DNA of 64,000 nt from a virus (lineage: Duplodnaviria; Caudoviricetes): IMG/VR virus record IMGVR_UViG_3300043205_000005, positions 2,532-66,531 of that record. The stretch is one strand, 5' to 3'. The notes beneath the pieces are model-generated. The model searched no databases. It was not told the origin of the DNA and was given only the letters and a program-made list of their open reading frames with translations. Position numbers and translations under genes: made by a program. Shown here in pieces: positions 13,499 through 45,586 of this stretch; the first letter of the stretch is position 1, and each line of letters starts with the position of its first letter.

Positions 13499-13540
13499 TT
13501 CACGATAGGTCCTTCGGGCTGAGGGACCGGACTCGGTCAC
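13499..13540 (+). repeat. Bipartite element, long form
   Basis: TTCACGATAGGTCCTTCGGGCTGAGGGACCGGACTCGGTCAC; spacing 37. Confidence 0.9.
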
Positions 13541-13559
13541 CTTTCCATCGGGAGCAAAC

Positions 13560-14423
13560 ATGAAACCGCTTTGCATCTATCACGGCGCTTGCGACGATGG
13601 CTTTGCGGCGGCATGGGTCGTGCGCAAGAGATTCCGCGATAGCGTCGAATTCTATCCTGGCGTTTATCAGAAAGAGCCGCCGCCGCATGAAGGTCGCGAC
13701 GTTGTGTTTGTCGATTTCAGTTACAAACGCCCCATACTTGACGCGATGGCCAGGTCAGCCAATTCGATTTTGATCCTGGACCATCACAAGACAGCGGCCG
13801 AAGATTTGGCGGATATCGCGCCCGCGCCGGATTTCATCGACTGGCGCGGCGCGGCGGCGATTGATGGCTCGGGAAACAATATGTTTGCGCTGTTCGACAT
13901 GAACCGCAGCGGTGCGGCAATGGCGTGGGATTATTTCATCGGTGGTTCGCGCCCCGACTTCATCGAATATGTGCAAGACCGCGATCTATGGCGCAAGGCG
14001 CTCCCGTGTGGCGATGAATTCACGATTGCGCTGCGTTCCTATCCGCAAGACTTTTTGATCTGGGACAAACTCGTTGACTCAGGTGCTCAATCTTTGATCG
14101 CGGAAGGCGGCGCGATACAGCGCTACTATCGTTTGCGCGTCGAAGAATTGAAGAAGAGTGCATATGCTGCCACACTCGACGGGCAAAATATCTGGATCGC
14201 GAACGCTCCATATTTTGCGGCAAGCGAAGTTGCGGGCGAACTGACTGAGCGCGACGGTACTTTCGGGGCTTGCTACTTCGAGGCCGAAGGCGGCCGTTGG
14301 CAATACTCGCTACGCTCTCGCGGCGATTTCGACGTAAGCGCCGTGGCGCGGAAATTTGGTGGCGGCGGCCACAAGGCCGCTGCCGGGTTTTCTGTCGATC
14401 AGCCCGCGCATACGAAACGGTGA
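13560..14423 (+). CDS. DHH/DHHA1 phosphoesterase (NrnB/nanoRNase-like)
   Basis: YHGACDDG, VDFS, LDHH, DRDLW, YSLRS, GGGGHKAAAG motifs. Confidence 0.85.
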   Translation: MKPLCIYHGACDDGFAAAWVVRKRFRDSVEFYPGVYQKEPPPHEGRDVVFVDFSYKRPILDAMARSANSILILDHHKTAAEDLADIAPAPDFIDWRGAAAIDGSGNNMFALFDMNRSGAAMAWDYFIGGSRPDFIEYVQDRDLWRKALPCGDEFTIALRSYPQDFLIWDKLVDSGAQSLIAEGGAIQRYYRLRVEELKKSAYAATLDGQNIWIANAPYFAASEVAGELTERDGTFGACYFEAEGGRWQYSLRSRGDFDVSAVARKFGGGGHKAAAGFSVDQPAHTKR

Positions 14424-14464
14424 CCGACATCCGGTCTTCTCAACCGGCACCTAGAGACCGTGAC
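14420..14464 (-). repeat. Bipartite element, variant C
   Basis: GTGACCGACATCCGGTCTTCTCAACCGGCACCTAGAGACCGTGAC; close to 31088-31131. Confidence 0.8.
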
Positions 14465-14529
14465 CCGGATAACCTTGCCTACCTTCTTTCCTTCGCCTAT
14501 GATTCCAACTCAACAGGAGGGCTAAGATA

Positions 14530-14838
14530 ATGAGCACGGCAAACATCCAATACGACCAGGAAGTTCTCGACATGGCCCAAGGCATGGCCAATGTCCGCAA
14601 GGAACGCGATGCACTGGCCAAAGAAGTTGAAGTGCTGAAAGCCGATGCTGCAATTATGAACACGAGACTCAGCGAGCGTCAGGACCAAATTAACCGTCTC
14701 GAAAACCAACTCCTGATCGCCACCATGCGTAACGGCCAACAGGTTTCGATCATCGAACAGATCAACCATCTGACTGCAAGCTACGAGAATTCCGTTCACG
14801 CCGCCGGCAGTGGGGTGGACAATACGACGCGGCAGTAA
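14530..14838 (+). CDS. Coiled-coil hypothetical protein
   Basis: AGGAGG RBS; heptad pattern. Confidence 0.5.
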   Translation: MSTANIQYDQEVLDMAQGMANVRKERDALAKEVEVLKADAAIMNTRLSERQDQINRLENQLLIATMRNGQQVSIIEQINHLTASYENSVHAAGSGVDNTTRQ

Positions 14839-15167
14839 TGGACAGGGTAACGGCCTTCCTAACCGCCGCTTTCGCGGCTTTCACACCTATCAAGGACCAT
14901 CGCCCCCACCAATGGTGCGGCTGGCAAATGCGCCATGAGGTCGCAATCGATCCTGGCCCAGGGTTCAACTTGGCTAGGGCCTGGACGCGCTGGGGAAGCC
15001 CTACGCACGCGCATGTCGGCGCGGTGGTAGTGTGGCCGCACCACGTCGGCAAGATCGTCAGCGGCGATTGTGAGGGCGGGGCGTGGATGGTCAGGTCGGG
15101 AAACGATGGAGGGACGGTACGGACGCGATGCCTGTCCGTGCGCGGGGCGATTGCGTTTCGGGAGTAG
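14838..15167 (+). CDS. TIGR02594/CHAP-like cell-wall hydrolase
   Basis: WCG...ARAW..WG...GAVVVW..HVG...GND pattern. Confidence 0.55.
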   Translation: MDRVTAFLTAAFAAFTPIKDHRPHQWCGWQMRHEVAIDPGPGFNLARAWTRWGSPTHAHVGAVVVWPHHVGKIVSGDCEGGAWMVRSGNDGGTVRTRCLSVRGAIAFRE

Positions 15168-15185
15168 GCGGCGGCTAATCTTGCT

Positions 15186-15523: not shown

Positions 15524-18500
15524 CTAACTTGTCTTTAATGCGCCCTTGGCGATGTCGCGAATGCCCTTGAGGCAATGCCTCCCCATGCTCGCACTAAAGG
15601 CGTCCAGTGTCATTCCGTTGGCCGTGAGTAGCTGGTGCGCCCGGTGGCATTCTTCTGGCGAAGGCTCATGAAAAACGTCCATAGGATAAGCATCGGCCCA
15701 TTGGACAATGCGCTGTAGGGCTTCGATTAGTTCTTCGCAGCGTTCGCACATCCTACTAACTCTTGTTTAATCCCCGGATTGCTTCCGCGTGCTTATCGCT
15801 ACCTTGAGCAACGCGACGATGTGGCACCTTCTTATTGCCGCGCATGGCTGTCAATTCCATCGTCGTGTATTCAATGTCAGCCGCCGCGATCTTGGCTGCT
15901 TCCTCTATCGCTGCATTCCATCCGGCATCAAACCCGGCTATTGCTGTTTGATTGTCCATGGTATTCTCCCGACAGTTCTCTTGTTAACCGGCCTTCGCTT
16001 CCGGTTCATACTTTGCCTTGAGGCGCGCTAAATCGTCTCGTTCCTGTCGCTCAATCTCAGCGTTACGCTGATCTTCAGCATCCCACTCAGCTTCATACCA
16101 AAGGCTCATTGCCTTTCCGTGCTGGTCCTCAATCCATTTTGCGAAGCGTTCGGGGATGCTGTCGCTCCAATTAAGATTGCAATCGTGCTTTACCTCATGG
16201 CCGTGCATCGAAAATTCAATCTTGATGCTGACCCGGTGGTCGCCCATCATCATTCCCCTGCATATTGGCCATTAGTCGTCTTGTGTGGGCGCCATTCTCC
16301 GCGATTTTCAACGACGCCATCGTGAGCGTCAGATATAACCCAAAAGTCATATAGACGTAGTTCCCAATGACCCGGCGAAAAATAATGACGGAGTTTCACT
16401 GGGGCGGCTGGACACATAACTTCGGTGATGATGTGCTCGCTCATGGGTATAATCGGCTAATCGCTTATTTCTCGGCAAACGCACCGGATCGTTTGATTAT
16501 CTTAATGGCCTCGTCCATGAGTGCCTTCTCCTGTTTGTCGTCAAGGAAGCGCATTGCGTGGCGAAACCACTTCCTCTTGCATAGAGCGGCGTGGAGCTTA
16601 ATCCATAGTTCTATTTCTTTAGCGTCGCTCATTTGCCGCTCCCGACATCCTGCTCATTAACAGTTTTTTTCCACCGCTCGTGTTCGGCTACGATCAACGC
16701 CTGTTCTGCCATCTGGCAATATTTTTCGTGAAGCTCGGCATCGAGTGGCAGTTCGTGCGGGGCAAACATGAACTGCTCCATGCAGTCCACAGCAGCCCAT
16801 ATTTCTTCTCTGCTCGGCATGTTCTTCCTGCTGTTCAGGGAACAGTCGCCACCCGCAGCGAAGCGGGGAAGTCGTCAAGGTCGAGCGTTTCCTTCGAGCG
16901 CAACACTTGCCGCGCACCATCAAGAGTGAGCCAGAAAAGATCATCGCCGCCTAGGCCCTTCGGTTTCTCGCGCCGCACAGCGTCGCCAAGGGCAACCATG
17001 GCCGTCCATTCGTCATAGTCGTTGTGGCCAGGACCGGCAGTGAAATAGTTGCGGTACGAACGATTCCGCTTATTTGGAAGGCCGAGCGCGTGCCGGGCTA
17101 GATCGATCTGTTTTTGGTTCATGAATTTCTCCCGCCTATCTCGGCGTATGTCGTTTTCAAAACGGACCAGCATTGTTCACAAGGCTAATGATTAAGTCAG
17201 CCGCCGCCTCTTTCTCGACAGCCTTGCCCCATATGGCCGCTATCTTGCGCCCCGTCGCATCGGTCAAATAAATGTCGCCGCCGCCGGAAGCGTTAGTGCC
17301 CACCCATGTCCAATCCCAAGGGCGCGGATGGGCATCGCGGATCAAGTCTTCTTCGCTTCTCGACATAGTCATCGTCAGTCGCCTATTGCTGGAAGTGATT
17401 TATCGAGCTTCCTGATTTCGGCGGCGCAAATTCGCGTGGCTGCCTGACCGCTTTCACTTGGGACCAACTTTGTTTCAGCACCGAGCACATAATAGAACGC
17501 ACTGTGTTCAAGCGTCGTAGCTGCCGCTTCGAGGGCGGCGTTCCACCCTCTGGATTCCGCGTGTGCGATGGCGAGTTCTTCGGCGGTCATGTTCTGCCTG
17601 CTGTTGGGGGTTTAGTCGTCCAATTCCGAGCAAATATCTTGTACGGTCACGCGGCTGCGCCAAAGGTCTTTTGCCCATTTCTCAATCATCGGCCATTTTT
17701 GCTGTGGGTGTCCCGCTCCTATTGCCCACGTATTGTGTTGTCGTTCCGCAACGATTTCGACGGTCTGCATAATCTTTTTGATCGCGGCTTGATTGGTCAT
17801 GGCTGTTGATGTGATGTTTGTGCCTATGCGACGCCAATCCAGATGATTCCAGCCCCGAAGAAAATACCGGAGGCTAGGTCGCGCGCACCAAAGAGCATCG
17901 CAATGCCACCGGCAAGTAGAACGAAACCAAAAGATACCTTGTGTCCGGTTGTCGGGAAATGTCTTTGGAGATACGTCATAGCTGCTCTCTACTGATCACT
18001 CTGGATTTTCACAAAGGGCGGCGCGCTCGGTAGCGCGAATGGCAGCACGCGCATAGTGTTCGCAGCGGCATCTGCCGTCCAGTGCAGGACAGCCATCGCT
18101 CAGATCGCAACTGCGTTCCTTTGCTATCGCCTGGGCCGCCATTTCGAGTTGGGCGCTGGTCATCGTGATTGTTCCTGCATTGGACGGGTTAATCGGCCGC
18201 TTTCTTTAGCGCGCGGATCGAAATATTGTAGCGGTGACCTTCAAGTTCGATGTCGATGTCGGCTTGTCCAAAGCCGATGCCGCCGCCCACCATCTTCGCG
18301 CCCTTGGCTTCACAGGCGCTTTGTACCCAAGCGCGCATATTGAAGGCCGGTTCGATTTCATCGGCACTGTCGAAGCCGAGGGGCTGTTCGCCAGAAATCA
18401 TCGGGACACCCTCTGGCATATTGATCGGGATAGTCGCGGTGCTGCCATTTTCAAGCACTTCGATAGCTTCACGCATAAGCTCCGCTGCCGCCCCGTAGTT

Positions 18501-19569
18501 ATCGTCGCCAGCGCGCTCCGCGTTTGCGATCCAAGCCTTCATGTCGGTGACGATTGCCATCTAAATCTCCATGCTGTTCGGCGGTTAGTCGGGCACGCAA
18601 TTGCTGTGTACGTCATAACCGGGCGGTTCGCCGTAATTGGCGAAATGGCCCTCTCCGTCCTTGATTGGTTCGCCGCACCTTTCACAGGTCACTATGAAAT
18701 GGGTGTCTATCCGGCGGCACCCCGCATGGCGAAGTGCTCCAATAATGAGGTCGCGGTCGGCGACGCTCAAATACGCAGGGCGGCAGATGTCTGTGAGGCC
18801 ACCCTGAGGGTAGTGATGCTGACTGACGGGCGCGCTCTCCAAGAACGCAATTAAAGTCTCAAGGTGTTTTGTGCTGATCTTTGCCATGCTAACGTCCTGT
18901 TAACCGCCGGTTTCCAATTCGTCCTTAATCCAAAGGACGATTTTGATTAACTCCGCATCCGACACTTTCCCGAACAGAAGAACGAATCCGAGATTGTGTA
19001 TAAGACGGCGGCGGTATCGTTCGCGCTCGGTCATGTCGTCTCCGCTGTCTCGCAAAACAGATCGGGCACAGGCTGCTTTTCCTTTTTGCGTCGCGGTTCC
19101 TTCCGCGTCCTTGGCAATCCCGGCGGCTTTGCTTCCGGCACTAAATGCGAGGGCAGTTGGCGACGGTAGCGCCACGCTAGAATTTCCAGATAGTGACGCT
19201 GGCGCAAGCTGATTTCATGCTGCGGAAGCAAGTCGGCGGTCGCGGCGGCGTCGGTGATAAACCGCGCGCCCACCCAGCCCGAGCAGCGATTGAGCGCCTT
19301 CGCAAGTTCAATTTCGTGCGGTGTCATGCTTTTGGCTTTCCGCTTCCACCTTGCAGCACTTCCAAATCGCGCCGAACGTGGACGCCACGATAGGTACGCA
19401 CGTAAAAATCGCTGTCCTTTGCCGCTAAGATTGCTTCCGCGTCTCTCTTCATCAATTCGGCTCGGTCCCGAAGTAGGGCAATCATTTCCGGGACTGTCTT
19501 GCGTCCCCAATCTGCATAGCCGGACCCAAAGCGGCCGGGCAGGTTGATGGCAGTCATCCTCTCGCTCAT
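15524..19569 (-). other. Run of small leftward hypothetical phage CDSs
   Basis: Tightly packed ORFs with RBSs: 15524-15751, 15756-15959, 15984-16253, 16250-16444, 16629-16820, 16835-17122, 17157-17372, 17375-17590, 17612-17800, 18189-18560, 18585-18887, 19031-19327, 19324-19569. Confidence 0.55.
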
Positions 19570-20396: not shown

Positions 20397-20609
20397 TCAG
20401 CGTCTACGTTCTCGATCACTGATTTCTCGCGCCGCATCCCGCACAACGTCGGTAGAAACCTCGGGGTGAAAGATCGCCATGAAGCCCTGAAAGGCTAGGG
20501 CCTCCGAACCAGCGCGACTGTGAAGAATCGCGCGAGCCGCGCGTACCCGTTCCATCTGCGACGTGCCCGGTAGTTTCTTGGCTAATGCAAATTCTGGTTT
20601 TTGTTTCAT
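20397..20609 (-). CDS. Hypothetical protein
   Basis: TGATG-coupled start inside the 44-bp repeat copy. Confidence 0.45.
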   Translation of the reverse strand: MKQKPEFALAKKLPGTSQMERVRAARAILHSRAGSEALAFQGFMAIFHPEVSTDVVRDAAREISDRERRR

Positions 20610-20649
20610 CACGCCACCTTCTCGCTGCTCTTTTCCATCCGCATCCGCT
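20606..20649. repeat. 44-bp direct repeat, copy 1
   Basis: TCATCACGCCACCTTCTCGCTGCTCTTTTCCATCCGCATCCGCT, identical to 20851-20894. Confidence 0.95.
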
Positions 20650-20857
20650 ACCAAACGCGCTTGATCTTGCCGTAAGGCGTTCCGTCGGATTGACAGTAGC
20701 CAATCCATTGGAGTACCCGAATGATCTCATCGCCTTCGATGCCGAGCATCCGGCAGGCTTTCACAGATCGCTTTGCGGCTGTATCGGAGCACTTATTGCG
20801 CTGGCTTTCGCGCATAAGCTCAATCATCGCGTCGGCCTTGTTTGCTATCGTCATCAC
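20648..20857 (-). CDS. Hypothetical 69-aa protein between the direct repeats
   Basis: ORF exactly spans the interval between the two 44-bp copies. Confidence 0.55.
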   Translation of the reverse strand: MMTIANKADAMIELMRESQRNKCSDTAAKRSVKACRMLGIEGDEIIRVLQWIGYCQSDGTPYGKIKRVW

Positions 20858-20894
20858 GCCACCTTCTCGCTGCTCTTTTCCATCCGCATCCGCT
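20851..20894. repeat. 44-bp direct repeat, copy 2 (3' end of recombinase gene)
   Basis: Identical to 20606-20649. Confidence 0.95.
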
Positions 20895-21876
20895 GCACGG
20901 TATGGGTGTTCTCCCGGCTGGCGCGGCTGTAGTCCATGGTCTGTGAAACGTCGGAATGGGTTGCGGCGTCGCGAACGTGTGCAGCTTGGGCACCCATGGT
21001 GATGGCCTCACTGATTGCACCGGCCCGCGCATCGCGGTTCTGCACGTTCAATGGCACGCCGCACTCGGTCGCGATGATCCGCCATTCCTCGCGGAAGTCG
21101 TCGGCCTTGTAGGGGAATCCGGTATATTCATCGATGATGACGGGGCCGCTCGCCGGCAACACATCGCGGCGAACAATGATCTTATCGTCGCGACGTTCAA
21201 TGCAGCCCGGCCATTGATGTTCCAGTTCAGCCATAACTAGCGGCGCCAATTTCAGGTCCGGTTCACTCAGTTTCTTGCGCTTGCTAGTCACATGGTGAAC
21301 AACAAGGTCCGCACCGATTTCTTCCCAGCGCAGCCCCTTGAGCCACTTCATCGGCCCTTTTCGCGGGTGCATCGAACAAACGTCTGACAATCCCGGCTCG
21401 CCAATCGGCAGCCATTCTCCGATTGTATCTTTTTGCCGCCAAGTGCAATCAAACGCGATGGCCTGTGCGAGCCCGATCATCGGTAGGCGCTGGCGCGCGG
21501 CATTGCAAATCGCGGTCGCTTGCTCGCGCGTAATGTGGACCGTCCGCGGCTTGCCATTGGCGAAGCGGCCTTTGCTCAGCAACAGCCCGAGGCGCTGGCA
21601 GGCTTCGTCATCGAGCGCGAAGAAACCGAAGTTGGCGAGCGTGCGCAGCATCCCGACCAAGGCGTGGCCCATGGAGACCTTCCGGCCGCCGTCGCTCCAT
21701 TGCTGATGCCACTCGTAGATCGTGCGGCCCTTGATGGCCGACACGTCCACGTCGCCGTGGTCGCGCTCGATCTGCGCCATGAGCCGGACGTAGTATCGCC
21801 GCGTGCAGTATTCGAGCTTGGCGAAGTTCGACACCGGGTCGGTGCGGTAGGATTCCATCAATGCGGAGAGGTTCAT
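20854..21876 (-). CDS. Tyrosine recombinase / integrase
   Basis: WRQKD (R), TSKR (K), NRDAR (HxxR-like), THS (H/W), MDYSR (Y); N-terminal core-binding-like domain. Confidence 0.75.
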   Translation of the reverse strand: MNLSALMESYRTDPVSNFAKLEYCTRRYYVRLMAQIERDHGDVDVSAIKGRTIYEWHQQWSDGGRKVSMGHALVGMLRTLANFGFFALDDEACQRLGLLLSKGRFANGKPRTVHITREQATAICNAARQRLPMIGLAQAIAFDCTWRQKDTIGEWLPIGEPGLSDVCSMHPRKGPMKWLKGLRWEEIGADLVVHHVTSKRKKLSEPDLKLAPLVMAELEHQWPGCIERRDDKIIVRRDVLPASGPVIIDEYTGFPYKADDFREEWRIIATECGVPLNVQNRDARAGAISEAITMGAQAAHVRDAATHSDVSQTMDYSRASRENTHTVQRMRMEKSSEKVA

Positions 21877-23425: not shown

Positions 23426-24178
23426 TTAAGCAGAAGTATGTGGGGAACTGTTCGGAAATTCCCGCACCATCAGGTCGTTCGGTATCGGCGCCTTCGCGGT
23501 CATTTGTTTCATAAAAAACGATACGCCAGCCTTTGCGCAATCGTCGCGCATGTAGCGCGCCCAATCGGGGTGCATATAGCGCGGCTCGCGTCCACTCTCG
23601 CCACCAACGATTACCCAATCGGGAAATTGTTTCGGCCTTATGCGCTCCAACATCGGCTCGACGCTGGCAAAGGTGAAGCGCGCACCAAGCACGCGGCCTG
23701 CCTCAATCAGCTTTGGAAGATCGCGGTCCCATTCTTCTTGAGTGACCATCGTCGAGCCGATGGCGGCATTGTCAGGCAACGGGCTGTTGGCCGATAACGG
23801 GTCGCACATCTTGATCGCGTTGCCGATGCGCTTCGAGAGAATGAGATAAAGCAAGTGCGGCGTGGCTTGCATCGTGGTCTTTGCCTCCCGCCGCCAAATC
23901 GGATTTACCTCATTGTCCCAAAAATCGCCGAGCGAGAGACAGAATACGGTATCGATGCGTCCCGCAGCCGCAGCGGCTTTGTCCCAACGCAGTGGCATTT
24001 TCCAATTCTGCTCCGACGTTCGCGAGCGATCTTCCCCAGCTCCCCAGGTCACGCGACCGTAGCGCTGGTCCATCATGACCATGGCGTAGCAGCGATCACA
24101 CGCCGGGCCGACCTGAGTGCATCCAATCCATGGATTCCAGGTGTGGACAGTCCACTCTATTTTGCTGTTCTCGCCCAC
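23426..24178 (-). CDS. Phage Gp37/Gp68 (DUF5131) radical-SAM-like protein
   Basis: SKIEWTVHTWNPWIGCTQVGPACDRCYA; WVIVGGESG. Confidence 0.85.
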   Translation of the reverse strand: MGENSKIEWTVHTWNPWIGCTQVGPACDRCYAMVMMDQRYGRVTWGAGEDRSRTSEQNWKMPLRWDKAAAAAGRIDTVFCLSLGDFWDNEVNPIWRREAKTTMQATPHLLYLILSKRIGNAIKMCDPLSANSPLPDNAAIGSTMVTQEEWDRDLPKLIEAGRVLGARFTFASVEPMLERIRPKQFPDWVIVGGESGREPRYMHPDWARYMRDDCAKAGVSFFMKQMTAKAPIPNDLMVREFPNSSPHTSA

Positions 24179-25208: not shown

Positions 25209-25685
25209 CTAACCTGTCGAATGTCGTGACGCAATTGCGACTAAAACAACCGCGCGCATTGTAACCAAATTTCCGCGCGCCGCATAGAGTCTTTCTGCGA
25301 CCAAAAGCGGATTTAAGCCGAGCATATTCCAGAACGCGCGCTCCATCATATTGTGCTGGGCGTCTCGATCGGTCAGATGGCAGGCGCGGCAGAGCGGCAC
25401 TGCGAATTTGTCGGGCGGCGTCTTGCCGGTGCCGCTGCGCTTGTGGAAAGAGGCGCTGGCGAATCGGATGTGAGCGGCTTCGCCGCAGGGCTCCATGCCA
25501 CATTTCAGGCATGGCATTTCGCGAACCAATTTCAGATAGGTCTCGTCTCGTTCTCCTACCTCTTTCAGTTTTATTTTCTTTGTTGTGTTGAAGGCGCGTT
25601 TGAGTAATTCGCCGGGGTGCGAGTCTTTGGTGGGGATGCGTTGAGGGCGAGTGTTCATGGCTTTATCAGATAATGTTTGCGTCAC
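25209..25685 (-). CDS. DUF968/NinG-like HNH-type protein
   Basis: YLKLVREMPCLKCG..AAHIR..VPLCRACH..QH; GTG start inside a repeat element (alternative ATG at 25658). Confidence 0.65.
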   Translation of the reverse strand: MTQTLSDKAMNTRPQRIPTKDSHPGELLKRAFNTTKKIKLKEVGERDETYLKLVREMPCLKCGMEPCGEAAHIRFASASFHKRSGTGKTPPDKFAVPLCRACHLTDRDAQHNMMERAFWNMLGLNPLLVAERLYAARGNLVTMRAVVLVAIASRHSTG

Positions 25686-25721
25686 GCGAGTTTGTTAGTT
25701 GGCAACACCGGACTCGGTCAA
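25681..25721 (+). repeat. Bipartite element, long form
   Basis: GTCACGCGAG...ACCGGACTCGGTCAA; spacing 36. Confidence 0.9.
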
Positions 25722-26333
25722 CGACGGGCTTACCGGACGTTCCTTCGCAAAGTTCACGGCTGGCGCCGGGCAGCGGCCAAGTTCTTTCAGCTTGCGGAAA
25801 AGTTCAAGCGCAGATCGCGCGTCGCCGCCGGCAGAGTGGGCGCCGTGCTGTTCGATCTGAAAATATGCCATCGCCTCGGAGAGTTTCGGAAATTTGAAGC
25901 CCTTCCCGCTGGCCTTCGGAATCTGACAAATCTCAGTCAGGGCGCGCATGGTGCAGATATTCGGCGTGCGCTCGAAACGGTCATCCATGCCCGCGCGGCG
26001 CAGTTCGCCTCGCATGATTTTCGTATCGTATTGGCTGTTATGGCAGACGATGATCCGGCCACAATCCACAGCATCCGTATAGGCTTGCAGCACGTGCGCG
26101 ACCGGCAATCCCTTCTCCAACAAAAGTTCATTCGGAAGATGATTGATCGCGGCAACGTCGGGAGGCATCGTCCAGCCCTCTGGCTTGACTAGAAGATCGA
26201 TAACGCTTTCCTCTTTCAGGTCCGCGTCAACGAGGATCATCCCCAAGTGTGCGAGGCGCGGCTGGCCTTCGGCGTCGGCGGGTTTTGAGAAATCGAACAA
26301 CCCGGATGTTTCTGTGTCCACTATCGCGTACAT
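25695..26333 (-). CDS. DEDDh 3'-5' exonuclease (Pol III epsilon-like)
   Basis: VDTETSG, CHNSQYD, CTM, HSAGGDA. Confidence 0.85.
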   Translation of the reverse strand: MYAIVDTETSGLFDFSKPADAEGQPRLAHLGMILVDADLKEESVIDLLVKPEGWTMPPDVAAINHLPNELLLEKGLPVAHVLQAYTDAVDCGRIIVCHNSQYDTKIMRGELRRAGMDDRFERTPNICTMRALTEICQIPKASGKGFKFPKLSEAMAYFQIEQHGAHSAGGDARSALELFRKLKELGRCPAPAVNFAKERPVSPSLTESGVAN

Positions 26334-27904: not shown

Positions 27905-28385
27905 GGTGTTCCTCGTATTCGTCATCGGCATACGCGGCGTCCATCGCTTCCTCTTCGGCTTCGACGGCTTGTGCACAGCGTTCAAGTTCAAACAGTGCTT
28001 GCCCCTCGATACCGCCAAGGAATGGACCATCGAACACGCGCTTATCCAAAGTCTCAGCCGTGTTGGACTGTGCGACTTCGCCGATGATCTTTGCCAGCCT
28101 ATCGCCAAGTGCAGCCCAATTCCTGAGAAAGTCGGCGACGTTTCGAAACTGATCTTTCGACGGCGAAGGCGAGATATGGGGCACATACATTCTCGCGGCA
28201 GCCTGGACGACTTCACGATGCACGGTCGCAATCGGATTGTGCCGGCCATTGTTTGCTCGGCTGAGAACGTCGATCAAGGTCTGGCGGTCATTGCTCAATG
28301 GCTCGGTGATAACCGTGAAGTCGCCTCTGAGAGTGTCATCGCTCATTGTAAGCCCCTGTTGGTTTTTAGATACGATATGGGTCAC
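27897..28385 (-). CDS. Hypothetical protein
   Basis: GTG start in a repeat element or ATG a few codons downstream (MSDDTL). Confidence 0.5.
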   Translation of the reverse strand: MTHIVSKNQQGLTMSDDTLRGDFTVITEPLSNDRQTLIDVLSRANNGRHNPIATVHREVVQAAARMYVPHISPSPSKDQFRNVADFLRNWAALGDRLAKIIGEVAQSNTAETLDKRVFDGPFLGGIEGQALFELERCAQAVEAEEEAMDAAYADDEYEEHHA

Positions 28386-28413
28386 GGGTACTCTGTGGTT
28401 ACGGTGCGGTCAC
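28381..28413 (+). repeat. Bipartite element, short form
   Basis: GTCACGGGTACTCTGTGGTTACGGTGCGGTCAC; spacing 28. Confidence 0.75.
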
Positions 28414-28836: not shown

Positions 28837-28856
28837 TTCACTCTCCCAAAGCCCGT

Positions 28857-31105: not shown

Positions 31106-31131
31106 TGCAACCGGCACTGAGGAACCGTGAC
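31088..31131 (-). repeat. Bipartite element, variant C
   Basis: TTGACCGGCATCCGGTGATGCAACCGGCACTGAGGAACCGTGAC; spacing 39. Confidence 0.8.
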
Positions 31132-31575
31132 CCGAACCACTCCCATAACCACCCTCACCCGCAAGCGTGCTTGGGCCTTCCGCAGGGCCGAAACGGTCGG
31201 CAAAGCCTTAGAGCGACTCGAAGGCAAAAAGGAATGGCTCAACGTCTATAATAGGTGGAGGATGTATCTACAGACCGCCGCTCAACTGACGCTGGCGATT
31301 GACGCTGTGAGACGGGAGGAAGAAAAAGAAACGCGAGTGCTGCGAGTATGAGCAATCATCTAGCTTACAAAACCGATCAACAAATAACAGCATTCGTAAT
31401 GGAAACGATGCAAACATTCAGCGCACTATCTTCCTCGGAACGAAGAGACTTGCGCGATGCCCACAGAAGGCGTTTTGTGGATGAGAGTTTGACGGCGAGG
31501 CGGCCCTATGTGTGGCCTTCCTCTTGTCACGAAGCGGAAACGCTGTTTGATAATCTCGATTTTCAAGGGGGATGA
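31127..31575 (+). other. Two small hypothetical CDSs (31127-31351, 31348-31575)
   Basis: Coupled ORFs; the first starts at the GTG of a repeat element. Confidence 0.45.
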
Positions 31576-31578: not shown

Positions 31579-32154
31579 GTGGCTGAAACACTGCGGTATC
31601 TTGCTTCTCCGTACACTCACTATCCCGCCGGCATGGAGCAAGCCTTTATCGACGTAGCAATTCTTGCCGGACGTTTATTTGCTATCGGCATCCCGACATT
31701 CTCGCCAATCGCGCACGCTTATCCCTACGTCAAATACGGCAACCTCGATCCGCTGGATTATCCGGCATGGAAGCCGGTCCAGGAGCGTTTGATGGACGCT
31801 TGTGATTCGTTGATTGTCGCTCATATGGACGGCTGGGAGAAAAGCGTTGGCATCGCGCATGAGGTCGCTTACTTCGAGCGAACAGAAAAACCAATCTTTG
31901 ATCTTGATCCTGTAACTCTCGTTCTTACGCGGCGTGGCGATCTTTTAGGAGAAGCCCGCTCCAAATTGTTAGAGGAAGTTCTGACCTTGCGCGGCAGTTG
32001 GAAGCCCGGCGCTCCTATATCCGAAAACAGAACTCCAAATCCAGCAACACATTTCGACGAGCGAATGCATTTGACATTGGAGGATACAAAGCCATTCTCA
32101 GGCGGGCGTCGTGAGTTGCCGCCGTTGGCGATGCCGGATTCAAAGGGGCAGTGA
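31579..32154 (+). CDS. DUF1937 / nucleoside deoxyribosyltransferase-like protein
   Basis: YLASPY..FSPIAH..CDSLIV..GWEKSVG..HEV. Confidence 0.7.
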   Translation: MAETLRYLASPYTHYPAGMEQAFIDVAILAGRLFAIGIPTFSPIAHAYPYVKYGNLDPLDYPAWKPVQERLMDACDSLIVAHMDGWEKSVGIAHEVAYFERTEKPIFDLDPVTLVLTRRGDLLGEARSKLLEEVLTLRGSWKPGAPISENRTPNPATHFDERMHLTLEDTKPFSGGRRELPPLAMPDSKGQ

Positions 32155-33807: not shown

Positions 33808-33874
33808 TTGTTTGTTTGTTAGACTGGCTACCTTGGCGTGCGATTGTTCTGTGAGATTCTTACGGCCATAGAGG

Positions 33875-34234
33875 GTGGAGAAAATGAGGCATTGGCCGCG
33901 CAAAGTTTCGGCATGGGACGGCATCGCTACGGCGCCGGGCGCAACTCGCAGCGGCAACGACCCGATCAATCCTTTGCGCATTTTGCGTTTGCGCAATCGC
34001 GGCCTGACCTATGCAGCGATTGGTATTCAAATTGCCTATGAGGATGGAAGGCAAATGCCATATGTCGGTGCCGCGGTCTACCGCGCGTTGAGGGAGTTTC
34101 AATGTGGCTTGCGTGATGAGGATGGTGGGCGCGAATTTCGACCAGCCACCAATAAAAGGTGCGAGCGCTGCGGTATCAGCTTGGGAACAGGGATCGGCGC
34201 GGTAATGCGAGGCTGGCGTGTGAACGCGCTTTAG
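33875..34234 (+). CDS. HTH plus Zn-ribbon hypothetical protein
   Basis: RGLTYAAIG..; CERCG. Confidence 0.4.
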   Translation: MEKMRHWPRKVSAWDGIATAPGATRSGNDPINPLRILRLRNRGLTYAAIGIQIAYEDGRQMPYVGAAVYRALREFQCGLRDEDGGREFRPATNKRCERCGISLGTGIGAVMRGWRVNAL

Positions 34235-34662
34235 TCGCAAGCCTCTATGGCAGTAAAACCCAAGCAGAACAATCGACAGCCAAGGTAGCCAAGCTAACAA
34301 AAAAACCTTCCTGATCTTCTTTAACTAAAAACGGGGCCGACACAATGACCATCCCACGACCGGACGAGCCGATAGACTCATCGCTCGGTTTCTTTGATCG
34401 CCAAGAATGTATCTCCATGAATCTCGCATTCTTCAAAGCCATGAAAGCCGCAGTCCAAAGTGGCGGCGAATCAAAACGCAATTTCACTTACGGCCCCAGA
34501 GTCGATCACACACCATTGGTCGGTGCACATTTCGACAGACAACTCCAACACTCGCCGATGTCGTCTAGCGCGGGAACGTGTACCAATGCGGCGGTACGTT
34601 GGAGTATCCCAGACAAAACGATACCTACTACTCCACCTTGGCCGCGCAAAGGTGGAAAATAA

Positions 34663-35761: not shown

Positions 35762-36028
35762 GTGACCGATACCGCAGTGCAGCAATTGGTGTCACGAGAG
35801 GGCCTTCGGACTGAATCACCGGATTCGGTCAACGATTCGTTCGCGAAGCGATGGATGCACAGAGAATTTTCGTGGTCTTTTCGGGTGCGCCCCGAAACAA
35901 TTGCCACTGTCGATCATTATTTGGCATGGCAAAAGGACCGGATTTATCAGGACCTTAACAACAATCTGTGGGACAACAATCCCGGCGAATTGGAACGCTG
36001 GGCCGATGATGGTGGAGCGGTTTGGTGA
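35762..36028 (+). CDS. Hypothetical ORF spanning an inverted-element cassette
   Basis: GTG start after AGGTGA; reads through the long element; stops in the short element. Confidence 0.4.
   Translation: MTDTAVQQLVSREGLRTESPDSVNDSFAKRWMHREFSWSFRVRPETIATVDHYLAWQKDRIYQDLNNNLWDNNPGELERWADDGGAVW
35791..35832 (+). repeat. Bipartite element, long form
   Basis: GTCACGAGAGGGCCTTCGGACTGAATCACCGGATTCGGTCAA; spacing 37. Confidence 0.9.
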
Positions 36029-36738
36029 CCGAACCGGAATCACAGCCTCTCGTGACACAAACCGAAGGCATCGGAACCTCAATCGTTCCGGCGCAGTCGT
36101 TTGACGTTGCGGGTTTTAAGCCGCTGCGCGACCCGAAGAAAGAGCGATTCTGTCGTCTCCGCGCTGTCTTGCGCCCCAAAGCCGACGCTTATCGCCAGTC
36201 CGGCCATAAATCCGAATCGGACCACGCCGCCGCTGGTAACGCCTCTCGGCTTGAGCGTCGGCAGGATATTTCGAATCGAATTGCCTATCTGTCGCGGCAA
36301 GAGGATGAAATTCTGCAAATTAAGCGGCAGCGGCTTGAGGAATTGCTTTGGACGATCCACGAGTCGAACGTCGCCGATATGTGGACGATGGTTGAGATTC
36401 CGGCTTACGACCGCCAGGGAAAACCAATTCTTGATGGGGAAGGAAACCCGACCACGAAAATGGTGCAGCGACCTAGAAATATTCACGACATGCCCGACGA
36501 TGTGCAGCGGTCGATTGAGGTTGTGACTATCAACGAGGCTGGTTTTGTCGTGCCTAAGCCATATTCGAAGCTGCAAGCGAATCAGGAGCTTCGAAAACTG
36601 TTGGGGATTGGAACCCCGACGCGCGATGATGGGGAACTGTCACGGTTGTCGGATGCTGAGCTAGTCGCGCAACTCGCGAGCCAGGCGAGGGAACTTGGCG
36701 TCGAGATAGATTTAAGCTATAGATTCAGCGGCAATTGA
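36022..36738 (+). CDS. terS: Terminase small subunit
   Basis: KERFC..AYRQSG..GNASRL..I..RI..L pattern; upstream of TerL. Confidence 0.6.
   Translation: MVTEPESQPLVTQTEGIGTSIVPAQSFDVAGFKPLRDPKKERFCRLRAVLRPKADAYRQSGHKSESDHAAAGNASRLERRQDISNRIAYLSRQEDEILQIKRQRLEELLWTIHESNVADMWTMVEIPAYDRQGKPILDGEGNPTTKMVQRPRNIHDMPDDVQRSIEVVTINEAGFVVPKPYSKLQANQELRKLLGIGTPTRDDGELSRLSDAELVAQLASQARELGVEIDLSYRFSGN
36025..36056 (-). repeat. Bipartite element, short form
   Basis: GTGACCGAACCGGAATCACAGCCTCTCGTGAC; spacing 27. Confidence 0.9.
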
Positions 36739-36750: not shown

Positions 36751-38135
36751 ATGAAATTCTTTGTGATGGACCAGACAGGCCATTCGACGATTGAATTCGA
36801 TAAAAGCGATGCCGCAGTGAGCGAGGCGATGGCAAAATTCACCGGCCTTGTTGGTGCTGGCCATGTGGCGGCAACGCGGAAGGAAGGCGCGACGGATTAT
36901 ACCGTCACCAAAACCTTTGATCCGACTGCCGATGAAACACTGTTTGTGCCGCAGATGAAGGGCGGTTGATGCCGATCTCGGTTGCAGAGATTCGTAATGA
37001 GTTTATGCCCGGATTGGTAGTCCGGGCATATGAACGATATAGCTTTGGATACTCCGACTGGAGTTCGGTATTTGGCAGCGCAGTTGGCGTGGTCCGTGAT
37101 CTTGCGGCCGACAAGCGCAGCGTTGAATTATTGAAGGCGTGGCTTTCTCCCGACCAGCTTGAACGATTTAATCAGGATGGAAAATTCGCCGTCGTCGGTA
37201 GCAAAAGCAAAAATAAATATTGGATTACTGACGGTGGTACTTCACATAACGTTGTTCGAATAAATCCGAAAACAAATCGGAGTGCAGAGCGGCTTTGCTT
37301 TGTGCCTGTGGATGCCAGTGCGCGAGGGGACGTGATGCTGGCGCAGAAAATCATGCTGGAAACCGACGAGCCGCAAGCATTGAAGATTGCAAATCGCTAC
37401 GCCGTCACTGCGGAGGCTTAAATGTCGGCTTATCAAACCACAAAAGCAATTATCGGACTTGCACTATTCGGCGCGATGCTGGCCGTTGTGGCTCATGCTT
37501 GGGGCTACCATCTGTGATGGGGTGACCGCGCTGAGATTTAGAATGCGCAGGCCGTGAATGACCCAACAAATAATTCCGACAAAATCTCCGCAACTTCAAC
37601 AATCCAAATGGTTGCGTGAATATTGTGAGATTCGGAACGAAACACTTTATGGCGAATACAAGATTGAGAACGTTCATTTTGTTCCGCCAGATCATTGGAT
37701 GGCGCGAGTGGTCAGTGTGCAGCGCGCAGGTGATTTTAGTCGCAATGTCATCAAAGGATCATTCCAACCTTATGTGTCAATTGTTGGGGCCGTTGAAGAT
37801 TTGATTTTTTGGACGTGGTTCGATTTGGTCAATCCAAACCGCCGCGACAATTATCGTCCGAAATCACTTCCACCGAAATTGGCGCTGACATGAACACGCG
37901 CCATAAGCAGACATTCGAACGCAAGCGCGTAGCGATGAAGATGCCGCCTCGCATTGTGCAATGTTTGCACTGCGGAGCCTCGATGGAATTTTGTTTAGGC
38001 GCCACGGCGGAAGTACCAGTGGAATCGTTCTATGCTATTTGTAGAAGACTAGATTTACCATCAACAAAGGATGTACCGAATACAATTTATCCGCAGAGAT
38101 GCGGCGAAATGTGCATCAGGAATATTCCGAAATGA
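36751..38135 (+). other. Small hypothetical CDSs between terS and terL (36751-36969, 36966-37421, 37558-37893, about 37890-38135)
   Basis: Coupled ORFs with RBSs. Confidence 0.45.
37522..37558 (-). repeat. Bipartite element, divergent variant
   Basis: GTGACCGCGCTGAG...GCCGTGAA; spacing 32. Confidence 0.55.
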
Positions 38136-39937: not shown

Positions 39938-39943
39938 GGTTGT

Positions 39944-39976
39944 GTCACGATAGCGGAGCGACAGCGGTGTGGTCAC
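39944..39976 (+). repeat. Bipartite element, short form
   Basis: GTCACGATAGCGGAGCGACAGCGGTGTGGTCAC; spacing 28; 6 nt after the terL stop. Confidence 0.8.
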
Positions 39977-40657
39977 CTAATGTGCGATGATCTTTTGCGT
40001 GTGACAATCGTCCGATACGACAAAGACTTGCTCGGTCTGTCGGGGCTTGTTCACGACGATGGAACGGTGGAAGTATTCTGCGATAATCCAACGGAACGTT
40101 TGAAATTACCACCGGGCACTTTCGCAATCATTCAAGACATTCGAGCGCGACGGGCAGTCGCATGAACCCCGAATTCCCCCAAAAACCCATCCTCCTATCC
40201 CCAACTTCGCTGTCGGACCAGCAATTGGACTGTATTGATAAGTTGGCGCAGTGCTTGGAAGAAGCCAAGAAAGGCAATGTGTTTACGGTGGGAATCATCG
40301 TGTGTATGAAAATGGGGTTTGCGACGACCATCGGTGGAACGGATGCCGGGTCGCTGAATCTAGGGTGCGATGCGTTGAAACAGCGTATCTTGGAAAACGT
40401 TGTGGATGAAGGTAGGGTGAAGCCGGGTCATGTTTCGATTATCAGGGGTAGATAATGACCGATTTGGTTCAGCGGCTGCGGGATGCTCATTCGATGGCGC
40501 TACAAGCCGACTTTGCGCCAGATAAGGCTGGGCTATATCGCGAGGCTGCGGAAGAAATTGATCGGTTACAGTCTCTTCTTGGTGCTGTTTCTTCCGGTCA
40601 ATCTGTGGCTGATATCAAAGAACATTTGCGGGGTCTCAAAAAGGAAAAACCAGATGC

Positions 40658-40700
40658 GTCACGAGAGTCCACAACGGGTTGATGGACCGGACTCGGTCAA
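40658..40700 (+). repeat. Bipartite element, long form
   Basis: GTCACGAGAG...TGATGGACCGGACTCGGTCAA; spacing 38. Confidence 0.9.
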
Positions 40701-40832
40701 CCTTCGGCACGAGCCATGAAATTCAGTGACGAAGTTGCGCCCGGCATTCGGATGGAATATGGTCCTGACGTTTGGAAACGCGGCCACGATATTACCATCG
40801 TTTTGGTGAACGAACTGAAACACAAGAATCAG

Positions 40833-40865
40833 GTGACCGTCCCCGAATCACAAGCCCCTCGTGAC
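40833..40865 (-). repeat. Bipartite element, short form
   Basis: GTGACCGTCCCCGAATCACAAGCCCCTCGTGAC; spacing 28. Confidence 0.85.
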
Positions 40866-41023
40866 CCAAATGGCCGCTGATCTTCGCGCAGATTTACACA
40901 TTTGGTTCGCCGGGTGGATGGACACCTGTACCGCCGCTGGCATGTCGGAAGCCGAAGCGAAGGTGTGGATAGCGCGCCATTGGGGGTCTGTGAAATTACG
41001 CGCGGCTTATGAAAGTGCTGTTA

Positions 41024-43253: not shown

Positions 43254-43598
43254 ATGAAAGATTTGGGTCATTCACGCGGATTGCGAGTTTCAGCGCGGCG
43301 CAGTCACCCAATCGTTGGCGACGGAGTATCTTTGAATTCGAGCGAACATCCCTACACCGTTCGCGGCTGGGATGCTTTCGGTAAACCAATGGTGGAAATT
43401 ATTGAAATTGCTCCATCGCGGCCCAAACACCCGATCCTCTATTTTCTCATGCGCCTTACGCCGTGGTGGGCGTGGAATGTCTGGTATCGTCTCGGCTTCA
43501 CCAAAATGCGCATGATTACCAAAATTGTGCCGCTTAGCGCCGACAGTTTGGTGACCGAACAGTTATCACTTCCCTCTCGTGACACAACCGGAGCCTGA
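43254..43598 (+). CDS. Hypothetical ORF spanning an inverted-element pair
   Basis: Contains a degenerate + element at its start and a short - element at its end. Confidence 0.4.
   Translation: MKDLGHSRGLRVSARRSHPIVGDGVSLNSSEHPYTVRGWDAFGKPMVEIIEIAPSRPKHPILYFLMRLTPWWAWNVWYRLGFTKMRMITKIVPLSADSLVTEQLSLPSRDTTGA
43271..43307 (+). repeat. Bipartite element, divergent variant
   Basis: TTCACGCGG...TCAGCGCGG..AGTCAC; reverse complement shares CCGCGCTGA with the 8802 and 37522 copies. Confidence 0.45.
43551..43583 (-). repeat. Bipartite element, short form
   Basis: GTGACCGAACAGTTATCACTTCCCTCTCGTGAC; spacing 28. Confidence 0.9.
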
Positions 43599-43599
43599 C

Positions 43600-44439
43600 A
43601 TGGGCCACCCCTTCCAAGAGCACAAACAGCACAAAGTCGAGCGCCAGCGCGTTGCTCACATCACCAAGGGCTACGCTACGGGTGGTGGTGTCCATTCCGA
43701 CGAAGCCGCCGATGTGAAACTCATCAAGGCCAAGGTCAAGAAAACCGCGCTGCGGATGGATGGTGGGGCGGTCAAGCATCGCGCCGACAAACGCGCGCGC
43801 GGTGGGCGAACGAAGGCGAAAAAGGGAACGACCGTCAATATCATCAATAGCCCGCAGCATCCCCCGGTGCCTCCGATGATGCCGCCGCCGGGAATGGGTG
43901 CAGGAATGCCACCCCGCCCACCGATGGCTGGCCCTCCCATGCCACCGCCTGGGGTGCCGCCCATGCCGCCTGGTGGCGCTATGCCTCCCGGTGGTCCAAT
44001 GATGCCGCCGCGTCCAGGAATGCCGCCTCCCGGTATGCCGATGCGAGCGCGGGGTGGGCGAATCAAGGATGGGTCGGCTTGGAAAGAAGGGCTTAATGCT
44101 GGAACGCAGGTCCAGCACGCCGATGGCAAGAGCGACGGCAAAGACATCGGCCGCGGCAAGATCGTGACATTCAGAACTGGCGGCGGCGTGGTCAAGACGT
44201 TCCGTGCGGGCGGCGGCGTCGGTCAGACTTCCGGTTCCGCTGGTCCCGGCAGTTCGTACAAGCCGACATACGCTCGAACGAAGGAACCTTTGGCCCCCGA
44301 AGTGAAACGTGCGATGGGTGGTCGAGCTGAAGCTCCAAAGGGTGTGGAAAGCGCGAGTAAACTGCCGGGTGGTGCTGGTGGTGGCGAAGCGCGGCTTGCC
44401 AAAGAGCACCGCGCGGAGAAGAATTACAAGCGCGCGTAG
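43600..44439 (+). CDS. Pro/Gly/Met-rich GG-motif protein (probable internal head protein)
   Basis: Seven xxGG[R/G/A] motifs; PPM-rich tract. Confidence 0.6.
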   Translation: MGHPFQEHKQHKVERQRVAHITKGYATGGGVHSDEAADVKLIKAKVKKTALRMDGGAVKHRADKRARGGRTKAKKGTTVNIINSPQHPPVPPMMPPPGMGAGMPPRPPMAGPPMPPPGVPPMPPGGAMPPGGPMMPPRPGMPPPGMPMRARGGRIKDGSAWKEGLNAGTQVQHADGKSDGKDIGRGKIVTFRTGGGVVKTFRAGGGVGQTSGSAGPGSSYKPTYARTKEPLAPEVKRAMGGRAEAPKGVESASKLPGGAGGGEARLAKEHRAEKNYKRA

Positions 44440-44459
44440 CTTTAAGTCGGTGCGGATTG

Positions 44460-44491
44460 TTGACCGCACCGTAGTCCCTGTCTCTCGTGAC
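44460..44491 (-). repeat. Bipartite element, short form
   Basis: TTGACCGCACCGTAGTCCCTGTCTCTCGTGAC; spacing 27. Confidence 0.85.
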
Positions 44492-44526
44492 CCAAATCTG
44501 AACTGTTCAACTTCGCGTGTTTTAGG

Positions 44527-44760
44527 ATGGCAACCCAGCAACCCTCTGCGGTACGCTTTTTCGCGGTCGATCACCCTGCGGTGGCGGGGACGGTTCGTGA
44601 GCGGCTTGAGAAACGACGTAAGGATTTGGTTGAAGAACTAGCCTTTGCGAAAGACTGGGGTGACTATTCGCGCCGCGCTGGTCGTCTGGAAGGCATCGAC
44701 AACGCTATTCAGCATTGCATTGACGTTGAAACCGAATCGCAGGAAAGAAACAGAGAATGA
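44527..44760 (+). CDS. Hypothetical protein
   Basis: DWGDYSRRAGRLEGI; typical small gene before GroES-like genes. Confidence 0.55.
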   Translation: MATQQPSAVRFFAVDHPAVAGTVRERLEKRRKDLVEELAFAKDWGDYSRRAGRLEGIDNAIQHCIDVETESQERNRE

Positions 44761-45209
44761 GCGTTACTTCCGTCCGCAAACTCTCCGACATCGCCGAAGC
44801 CATCGGCAAAGGCAAAGACGCTAGGACCGTTCTGGTTGATGCGATCGGCAAGGACAATATCGAAAGTTTCGAGCCTTTTCACAATCTGATTCTGATCGCA
44901 ACTTACGTGCGTTCCGACATGACGAAGGGCGGCATTATCATCGGTGGTGACCGAACGCGCGCCGAAGATCGTTTCCAAGGTAAGATCGGGATGGTTCTCA
45001 AGGTTGGTCCCACGGCGTTCAAAGGCAAGACGCCGGAGAGTTTTGGCGGCGTCACGGTCAAAGCCGGCGACTGGATCATGTATAAAGCGTCGGATGCTCA
45101 TGAGTTTTTTTTCGTGGATGAAAAGTCCGCGCTCGATGGCAGCTCGTGCCGACTGATCGAGGATACGCTGGTGATGGGGCGGGTGGCTGATCCGGAGAGT
45201 ATTTTCTGA
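44757..45209 (+). CDS. GroES/Cpn10-like co-chaperonin
   Basis: TKGGIII...GMVLKVGP..VKAGDWIMY. Confidence 0.75.
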   Translation: MSVTSVRKLSDIAEAIGKGKDARTVLVDAIGKDNIESFEPFHNLILIATYVRSDMTKGGIIIGGDRTRAEDRFQGKIGMVLKVGPTAFKGKTPESFGGVTVKAGDWIMYKASDAHEFFFVDEKSALDGSSCRLIEDTLVMGRVADPESIF

Positions 45210-45586
45210 TGGCTGATTCGGGTCACGATAGTCCTGCGGTTGTTGATAGACCGGACTCGGTCAACAATCCTTATACAGACCGGCTTATTGCGCTCGGTCG
45301 AAGCGTGGATAAGGATATGGCTAAGGCGTCCATCGACAAATGCAACTGCATGATCCGTTACGCTCATATGGATACGCAGTTGCCCGCGATCCGAAAGGGG
45401 AAGGAGTTCTTTACGCCCGAAGGCTATGCGATAATTCCGCCGAACAGCTTTGAGGATATGGACTATCGCGCGATTCATAATCTCATGAAATCACGCGGGG
45501 ATGAGTATATTGGGCATATGTTTGCGCCGCTGCCGGCGGTGACCGCCCCGGAATCACCAACCTCTCGTGACACAAAAACTTCCTGA
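45209..45586 (+). CDS. Hypothetical ORF spanning an inverted-element cassette
   Basis: TGATG-coupled; both elements read in frame (HDS..RPDSVN; VTAPESPTSRD). Confidence 0.5.
   Translation: MADSGHDSPAVVDRPDSVNNPYTDRLIALGRSVDKDMAKASIDKCNCMIRYAHMDTQLPAIRKGKEFFTPEGYAIIPPNSFEDMDYRAIHNLMKSRGDEYIGHMFAPLPAVTAPESPTSRDTKTS
45222..45264 (+). repeat. Bipartite element, long form
   Basis: GTCACGATAG...TGATAGACCGGACTCGGTCAA; spacing 38. Confidence 0.9.
45539..45571 (-). repeat. Bipartite element, short form
   Basis: GTGACCGCCCCGGAATCACCAACCTCTCGTGAC; spacing 28. Confidence 0.9.

Follow-up and report, generated by a model that had tools for sequence, protein, structure and literature searches.

Repeated arms in a soil phage genome

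The window analysed here, a 64,000-nt stretch (bases 2532-66531) of an IMG/VR virus record that is 66.5 kb long and has a completeness rating of 98%, belongs to a soil podophage that encodes a large terminase, an SU10-like portal, ejection proteins and a DHH phosphoesterase. Dispersed through the phage genome are about 27 copies of a short two-box sequence, termed arms in what follows, many of which face inward in inverted pairs around a single gene. The sequence between paired arms is called the cargo, and the site that a pair occupies is called a slot. When 20 kb of the window was compared with 50,697 phage records by megablast no match was obtained, and the public runs holding the region are soil metagenomes. 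Relatives were collected through their terL homologues, which range from 95 to 59% identity. Whole-genome comparisons were made among five phages, namely the window's own phage (G000), its closest relative (G001), G003, and G004 and G005, both of which are 100% complete; individual loci of relatives are designated L001 to L005. Some of the arm-bearing phage genomes end in direct terminal repeats.

The arm is bipartite: box A (GTCACGAGAG) lies on the outside, box B (CGGTCAMC) on the inside, and a spacer of about 17-27 bp separates them. Read in the orientation of the element, box A is preceded by a TTTG-like tip in every copy, and box B of the long copies is extended to ACCGGACTCGGTCAAC. Long arms measure about 45 nt and short arms about 35 nt; the box cores lie 37 bp apart in the former and 27 bp apart in the latter, as counted once by hand, a difference of about one helical turn. 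Two further types, C and D (the latter about 70 nt), have the tip or box B, or a spacer subfamily, in common with the others.

The box A decamer occurs 18 times with at most one mismatch against 2.9 occurrences expected, and none of 100 shuffles reached 18. A profile scan found 19 strong copies of the arm in the window. Iterated profile scans raised the count to 25 for the whole of G000, C-type arms included, and gave 16, 18, 20 and 17 copies in the other four complete genomes, the last two figures being those of G004 and G005. The boxes are near-invariant across genomes whose common core proteins are only about 45-65% identical. Long arms of G005 are nearly identical to each other, spacer included; those of G000 form several spacer subfamilies. 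The near-identity within G005 points to a probable recent spread or homogenisation of the arms in that genome.

Arms and cargoes along the window

The first-pass annotation, made from the window alone, had described inverted, inward-facing elements around single genes. All of the pairs that it named exist, with right arms at 14464, 31131 and especially 28888 that are degenerate. The pair 7058/8838 consists of a long arm (7052-7102, +) and a C-type arm (8795-8853, -) around the gene for a 577-aa protein with an ART-PolyVal-like domain (7142-8875, +); G001 lacks 6934-8402, its gap beginning at the left arm. In the pair 13499/14464 a long arm (13492-13542, +) and a degenerate long arm (14418-14467, -) frame the DHH phosphoesterase gene (13560-14423, +; phrog_4771 at 2e-84, with a DHHA1 domain), the stop codon of which lies within box B of the right arm. 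In two of the proposed pairs the right arm is weak. For 28381/28888, the left member is a short arm (28374-28417, +; nhmmer E 1.6e-9) at the 3' side of the minus-strand gene 28399-28929, and the right member is a degenerate C-like copy recognised only by eye. For 29130/31131, which had been offered as a possible pair, the left member is a long arm (29124-29174, +) bordering the divergent early region, and its possible partner is a degenerate long arm (31085-31137, -) that was aligned by eye and reaches an nhmmer E of 0.18.

Long (+) and short (-) arms are combined, as had been claimed, in the pairs 35791/36056, 40658/40865 and 45222/45571. In the first of these the long arm (35785-35834, +) is translated within the terS N-terminus and occurs as a solo in L001, L003 and L005; L001 lacks the cargo (35835-36020, +), and in L004 an unrelated sequence takes its place. 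The terS gene is thereby split (35762-36738). An 88-aa open reading frame (ORF) begins at the original start, retains 26 codons and from there enters the cargo, and the 238-aa terS remainder restarts within box B of the right, short arm (36021-36063, -), where the stop and start codons overlap. The terS ORF of L001 reads through its solo arm. In the second pair the long arm (40652-40702, +) is read as the C-terminal tail of the upstream gene, which ends within it; the cargo is a 54-aa gene (40716-40880, +) and the right end is a short arm (40829-40872, -). The third pair is made up of a long arm (45216-45266, +), its cargo (45267-45536, +) and a short arm (45537-45576, -). The pair 43271/43583 joins a C-type arm (43262-43320, +) to a short arm (43548-43590, -), and the cargo of this slot (43262-43590) differs in every relative examined. 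One pair had been overlooked, namely the D-type arms at 33810-33881 (+) and 34235-34306 (-), which form inverted repeat I1. They enclose 353 bp, as against 872 bp in G001, and copies are found at other G001 and G003 loci; one D-type copy is the left border of a 2.4-kb slot in G001.

The copies at 44460, 47875, 53728, 57750, 25681 and 39944 had been reported to lack an obvious partner. They are indeed unpaired in the window phage, and the orthologue of 47875 (a short arm, 47872-47914, -) is partnered in L003. A solo short arm (44457-44498, -) is kept in 6/6 relatives, a solo long arm (53725-53777, -) precedes the capsid module and another lies at 57744-57793 (+). A long arm at 25674-25724 (+) stands between an exonuclease gene and an HNH gene, and a short arm at 39938-39980 (+) follows terL; the 61-aa gene after it is absent from L001 and L003. 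A further long arm (9441-9492, +) is likewise partnerless. Two C-type arms mark the edges of segments missing from G001, one (37515-37570, -) bordering 556 bp and the other (52850-52905, +) forming the left edge of 448 bp.

A long-type arm-like sequence (3221-3267, +) lies in frame within the gene for a 1045-aa ejection protein, with a perfect box B and a weak box A (nhmmer E 3e-8). It is also found in G001, and G003 has an unrelated linker of equal length at this point. An in-frame insertion is not shown by this comparison, in which arm-like stretch and linker are of the same length; on the alignment, a conversion patch rather than an insertion is suggested.

Arms face each other across short distances

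Neighbouring arms within 600 bp of each other are predominantly arranged head to head around the intervening sequence. Over all fetched loci the counts were 22 for +-, 5 for -+, 2 for ++ and 0 for --; in the five whole genomes they were 21, 4, 0 and 2, respectively, so that 21/27 neighbours face inward. Chance falls far short of explaining this excess of inward pairs. Where the arms of a pair stand only 10-15 bp from each other, they make up 'empty' palindromic units with a total length of about 100-110 bp. Resemblance between partner arms does not exceed that between non-partners (11.1 vs 11.6 of 20 positions, p ~0.8).

Slot content varies among relatives

In alignments with relatives the conserved genes align up to box A, and the segments between the B boxes are the variable ones; box A thus abuts conserved backbone and box B abuts variable cargo. 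Several slots filled in the window are closed elsewhere. Window positions 35840-36070 correspond to 16 bp in L001, and 47699-47926 to 36 bp in L001 and 23 bp in L004, with the full pair present in L003. The segment 45214-45587 corresponds to a 13-bp intergenic gap in L005, to unrelated cargo between both arms in L004 and to the right arm alone in L003. At the terS slot the window and L004 keep both orthologous arms, site-specific spacers included, around cargo that has been replaced. The G000 pair located just left of the window, in which the arms stand back to back with 10 bp between them, corresponds to the filled 2.4-kb slot of G001, and three further empty pairs were found in other contigs. 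Among the clean presence/absence indels between G000 and G001 an arm lies at the boundary in 7/11, by hand count from the alignment list. The break points that could be mapped fall in the spacer at 45.2 kb and at the inner edge of box B at 35.8 kb, giving no single fixed position.

When 23 cargoes were compared a single homologous pair was found, and most window cargoes are without a homologue in the four other genomes. Cargo seen to date includes methyltransferases, a phosphoesterase, an ADP-ribosyltransferase-like protein and many orphans. In these comparisons the framed segments are the variable parts, which supports the gene-cassette interpretation put forward in the first-pass annotation. 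Relatives do not simply keep the same genes without the flanking elements; the framed genes behave like cassettes, being absent, present, replaced or relocated from one relative to another.

Units and arms in otherwise unrelated phages

Relocation is seen most clearly in G005, which contains two methyltransferase units 48 kb apart. Homology between the two units starts and stops at the outer tips of the arms, the flanks are unrelated and no duplication is visible. The methyltransferase and its 5' arm are also present in G000-type phages. Another G005 unit holds a truncated DHH gene, in which the arm, the leader and the first 25 DHH codons are as in the window unit and the surrounding context is another one. 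The homologue of the 54-aa cargo at 40716 occupies a different slot in G003.

The arms themselves are common to phages with very little else in common. G004 has just 3 detectable proteins in common with G000 (E<=1e-5), yet it carries 20 arms with near-identical boxes; G005, with about 14 proteins in common with G000, has near-identical boxes as well. Spacer subfamilies cross phage lineages.

Proposed exchange of slot content through the arms

The explanation that we favour, with a probability of roughly 0.4, is that the arms delimit exchangeable gene slots and act as substrates of homology-driven recombination by which slot content is exchanged between co-infecting phages. Gene turnover would result from recombination of such phages within or at the arms, for example by a double crossover in both arms comparable to recombineering with 35-60-bp homology arms. 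The content between the arms could in this manner be swapped, added or removed, and the arms might sometimes travel with their cargo to a new site. The inverted orientation would protect the cargo from repeat-mediated deletion, and inverted pairs were presumably kept because direct repeats would delete the gene. A homology-driven mode is preferred because the arms have the length used in recombineering, mapped break points vary in position and arms of different types are combined.

Among described systems the arms come closest to the promoter early stem-loop (PeSL) cassettes of T4-type phages and to the pdif modules treated below, and for the former a comparable proposal exists. In PeSL cassettes, short repeats also border small and mostly orphan phage genes, indels and replacements coincide with the repeats, and recombination between repeats is the proposed driver of shuffling. 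PeSLs consist of a sigma-70 promoter and a terminator hairpin, and recombination of nearby PeSLs frees mini-circles (Arbiol et al. 2010, PMC2839356; PMC4122927). The arms differ from them in being bipartite, in comprising at least 4 types and in forming inverted pairs around the cargo, and no promoter, terminator or covarying structure was found in them.

Several points weigh against this explanation. Arms and indels are both confined to gene junctions, and their association is partly a shared-location effect because of this restriction; some slots have one recognisable arm only, and few break points can be mapped. No recombination event was directly observed. A phage single-strand-annealing recombinase was not identified, the search yielding only a weak Ref/HNH-like nuclease. 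Plain homologous recombination, moreover, needs no sequence-specific factor, and the conservation of the boxes between phages otherwise dissimilar in DNA suggests that such a factor may keep them conserved.

The small HNH nuclease gene (25209-25685, -) shows weak similarity to DUF968 and to the RecA-dependent nuclease Ref. Its start abuts box A of an arm in both the window and G005, and the gene is present in G000, G001, G003 and G005 and not in G004.

Phage genomes are mosaics, yet it is mostly unexplained how single accessory genes enter and leave between packed core genes while the latter stay intact. The joints are visible here, in the form of a two-box sequence that bounds variable genes and recurs in phages sharing hardly any genes. 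Should the arms be substrates of recombination, they would constitute a common currency for gene exchange among unrelated phages of one host community. The question of how morons move becomes directly testable. The arms may also be of use as markers for accessory and anti-defence genes in metagenomic phages, and they could serve as landing pads for phage engineering.

Possible site-specific recombination

The main rival, and the more novel reading compared with homology-driven exchange, is a dedicated system of the pdif kind. It is possible, if unlikely, that the arms are the sites of an undescribed Xer/pdif-like system in tailed soil phages (some with terminal repeats and probably lytic), which would draw its enzyme from the host or from an unrecognised phage gene and move single-gene modules across slots and between unrelated lineages of the same host, in effect a network for trading cassettes from phage to phage. 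The more general form of the idea, in which a dedicated site-specific recombinase, either host-encoded like XerC/XerD or an unrecognised phage protein, exchanges modules and sometimes inverts them, strikes us as somewhat more doubtful still. In the pdif modules of Acinetobacter plasmids, inversely oriented asymmetric sites bound accessory genes in varied contexts, two kinds of segment alternate, depending on the half-site turned inward, and no recombinase is encoded by the modules themselves. The pdif sites are 28-bp XerC-6-XerD sites on which the host Xer proteins act, and inversions and deletions have been detected experimentally (PMC13141974, PMC6449649, PMC7399989). The arms resemble this architecture in their inverse orientation and in the alternation of cargo internal to box B with backbone internal to box A (cf. 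PMC13141974). Boxes that recur in unrelated phages without a common recombinase would fit a host enzyme, and their near-invariance beside diverged core proteins, as well as the lack of any target duplication found, are in line with site-specific recognition. In the empty pairs two inverted B boxes stand 10-15 bp apart with box A on the flanks, which resembles core and accessory sites. In L005 a second box-B-like copy, in direct orientation, closes the cargo behind the 39938-type arm.

Set against these likenesses are differences in layout. Arms are 35-70 bp long and occur in phage genomes, they do not follow the Xer 11-6-11 arrangement, and the gap between inverted B boxes is too long for a tyrosine-recombinase core. 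Integrated cargo has one arm at each end and not hybrid full sites, and the mapped break points differ in position. A dif-like counterpart in a host was not found either. The strict two-box pattern gave 1 match in about 185,000 species genomes, a number to be expected by chance. Searched with the sequence profile, Tepidisphaeraceae genomes gave one weak copy in the metagenome-assembled genome (MAG) that carries the pattern match and otherwise weak partial matches only, in 17/61 genomes of the family; no matching single-copy site was found in either set. A host or bacterial origin of the arms was considered and set aside on the same chance-level and weak matches. The single pattern match lies at 234-273 of a Tepidisphaeraceae MAG contig (L110), directly upstream of an AbrB/antitoxin-like ORF whose start codon is the GTG in box A.

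Possible non-autonomous transposition

It is improbable, in our estimation, that arm-cargo-arm units are non-autonomous transposons, that is, long relatives of miniature inverted-repeat transposable elements (MITEs) or mobile insertion cassettes with terminal inverted repeats of about 45 bp, moved by a transposase acting in trans. Such elements likewise have terminal inverted repeats around a short transposase-free segment and are polymorphic for presence, as are mycobacteriophage mobile elements (MPMEs), and one unit is here duplicated within a genome. The discrete units, with homology that stops at the arm tips and unrelated flanks around the two G005 copies, are what transposition would produce, and compact cargo-free units of about 100-110 bp and arm-like sequence inside coding regions could be explained in the same way. 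MPME copies have one internal 123-codon ORF in common, and a short gap typical of these elements is left where they insert (PMC4351075). By contrast, nearly every cargo framed by arms is different, partners often differ in type and match each other no better than non-partners do, and many arms are conserved as solos.

Target-site duplications were not found at the sites compared, where flanks are 75-85% identical, and duplications of 2-3 bp could be missed because of that divergence. One 8-bp string lies on the left boundary of the 45209 unit and recurs where the downstream gene starts. It was rejected as a target duplication, being asymmetric about the arm tips and not repeated at other sites, and is more likely a duplicated start-codon context.

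IS1595/ISXO2-type DDE transposase genes are present in G001 (L115:16279-17220), where the gene sits inside an arm-bounded slot, and in G005 (L125:17460-18503), which would provide a conceivable source of transposase. However, the insertion sequence in G005 is bounded by inverted repeats of its own, about 19-35 bp long (16871-16889, 18532-18550) and unrelated to the arms, and these transposases were accordingly not retained as movers of arms. No transposase was found in G000, G003 and G004. Transposases of the rve and Y1_Tnp types were found in none of the five genomes, in a search that fell short of covering every transposase family and the host. An analogy with the asymmetric ends of Mu and Tn7, which had been drawn at first, is not borne out, as none of the five genomes has an rve-type transposase and each end is a single two-box unit instead of an array of transposase-binding sites.

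Possible gene expression signals

No more credible than transposition is the idea that the arms are purely gene-expression signals at gene junctions (regulator sites, translation coupling or RNA processing), the variability of their neighbours being ordinary moron turnover. In units with a readable cargo ORF the long arm lies 5' and the short arm 3' of the cargo gene, by our own reading. The long/short asymmetry may belong to the expression signals of the cargo rather than to transposon ends, because, wherever the cargo gene could be read, the asymmetry tended to agree with its direction. In the sense orientation the arm is open in all three frames, and in the antisense orientation its consensus reads TGA in two frames and an overlapping stop/start. 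Several genes start or end inside arms, and solo arms are conserved over long distances.

Other phages, too, have repeats at their gene starts for which no function is known. The start-associated sequences (SAS) and extended start-associated sequences (ESAS) of cluster K mycobacteriophages and the 17-bp repeats of cluster O resemble the arms as motifs present in many copies at phage gene junctions, without known function and presumed to be bound by protein. ESAS are imperfect inverted repeats with a variable spacer; all these repeats lie upstream of conserved genes, and SAS have one orientation bar a rare exception (PMC3203893, PMC4351075). Unlike the arms, these repeats are not reported to frame variable cargo or to occur in unrelated phages.

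Direct searches for expression signals gave little. No sigma-70 promoter or intrinsic terminator coincides with arms, the consensus scan being at or below shuffle expectation with a host promoter type that may differ from the consensus, and a role as promoter or terminator was discarded on these grounds. Rfam gave no match at the gathering threshold, RNAalifold on 38 long copies returned just an invariant 4-bp hairpin with no compensatory pair, and no complementarity specific to partner arms was detected; an RNA element was therefore rejected as well. The orientation of long arms relative to transcription is not fixed (21 sense, 13 antisense), and no RNA runs holding the region are listed among the public runs. 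The arms may also serve expression. Regulation alone would leave relocated units unexplained, in particular the duplication of a whole unit with homology ending at the arm tips.

The proposed phage recombinase and inversion

The first-pass annotation had instead proposed that a phage tyrosine recombinase captures or inverts genes between paired sites, as in a shufflon or an integron; this is very improbable and the least supported of the readings, the transposon and regulatory alternatives ranking between it and the pdif-like system. Inverted sites are what an invertase needs, and a tyrosine-recombinase-like gene is found in G000, G001 and G003. In the window it lies at 20854-21876 (-), does not adjoin the slots and is not linked to the arms. 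Its family (PF00589) passes the Pfam cut-off in G003 alone, falls short of it in G000 and G001, and is absent from G004 and G005, complete genomes that nonetheless carry arms, so that the recombinase is not present wherever the arms are. Just downstream of the gene on the minus strand is a perfect 44-bp direct repeat (20606-20649 / 20851-20894, 245 bp apart).

The two orientations of a segment expected of a shufflon or invertible switch were not observed. The single cargo that is shared between relatives in the same slot keeps its orientation. Four soil-metagenome runs contain the region, all as contigs, and these show 'skip' joints only, with no change of strand. The joints seen are element-to-element repeats or stem from diverged co-resident relatives, an example being a 'skip' joint over 35834-36157 at depth 7 vs 45. 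Contigs neither show nor exclude excision or inversion because rare forms are not visible in them.

Integron cassettes share with the framed units their promoterless single genes and conserved imperfect inverted repeats. No IntI-type integrase was found in the phages, though, and their cargo lies between two arms, whereas an integron cassette precedes one folded attC; the slots are scattered among core genes and do not form an attI array. The inner boxes GGTCAAC and GTTGACC each match 6/7 positions of the integron core-site consensus, a loose resemblance to the core and inverse-core sites.

Protein families accompanying the arms

The only proteins common to G000 and the otherwise unrelated G004 are a DUF5131 protein (23426-24178, -), a DUF1937 protein (31579-32154, +) and the ART-domain protein. 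The DUF5131 and DUF1937 families are found in 8/8 complete genomes with several arms and are absent from one complete genome with a single chance-level match. They were considered as factors acting in trans on the arms, with which they co-occur, but both are enzyme-like families without evidence of DNA binding and are regarded as a lead only. The DUF5131 protein is listed in a radical-SAM resource.

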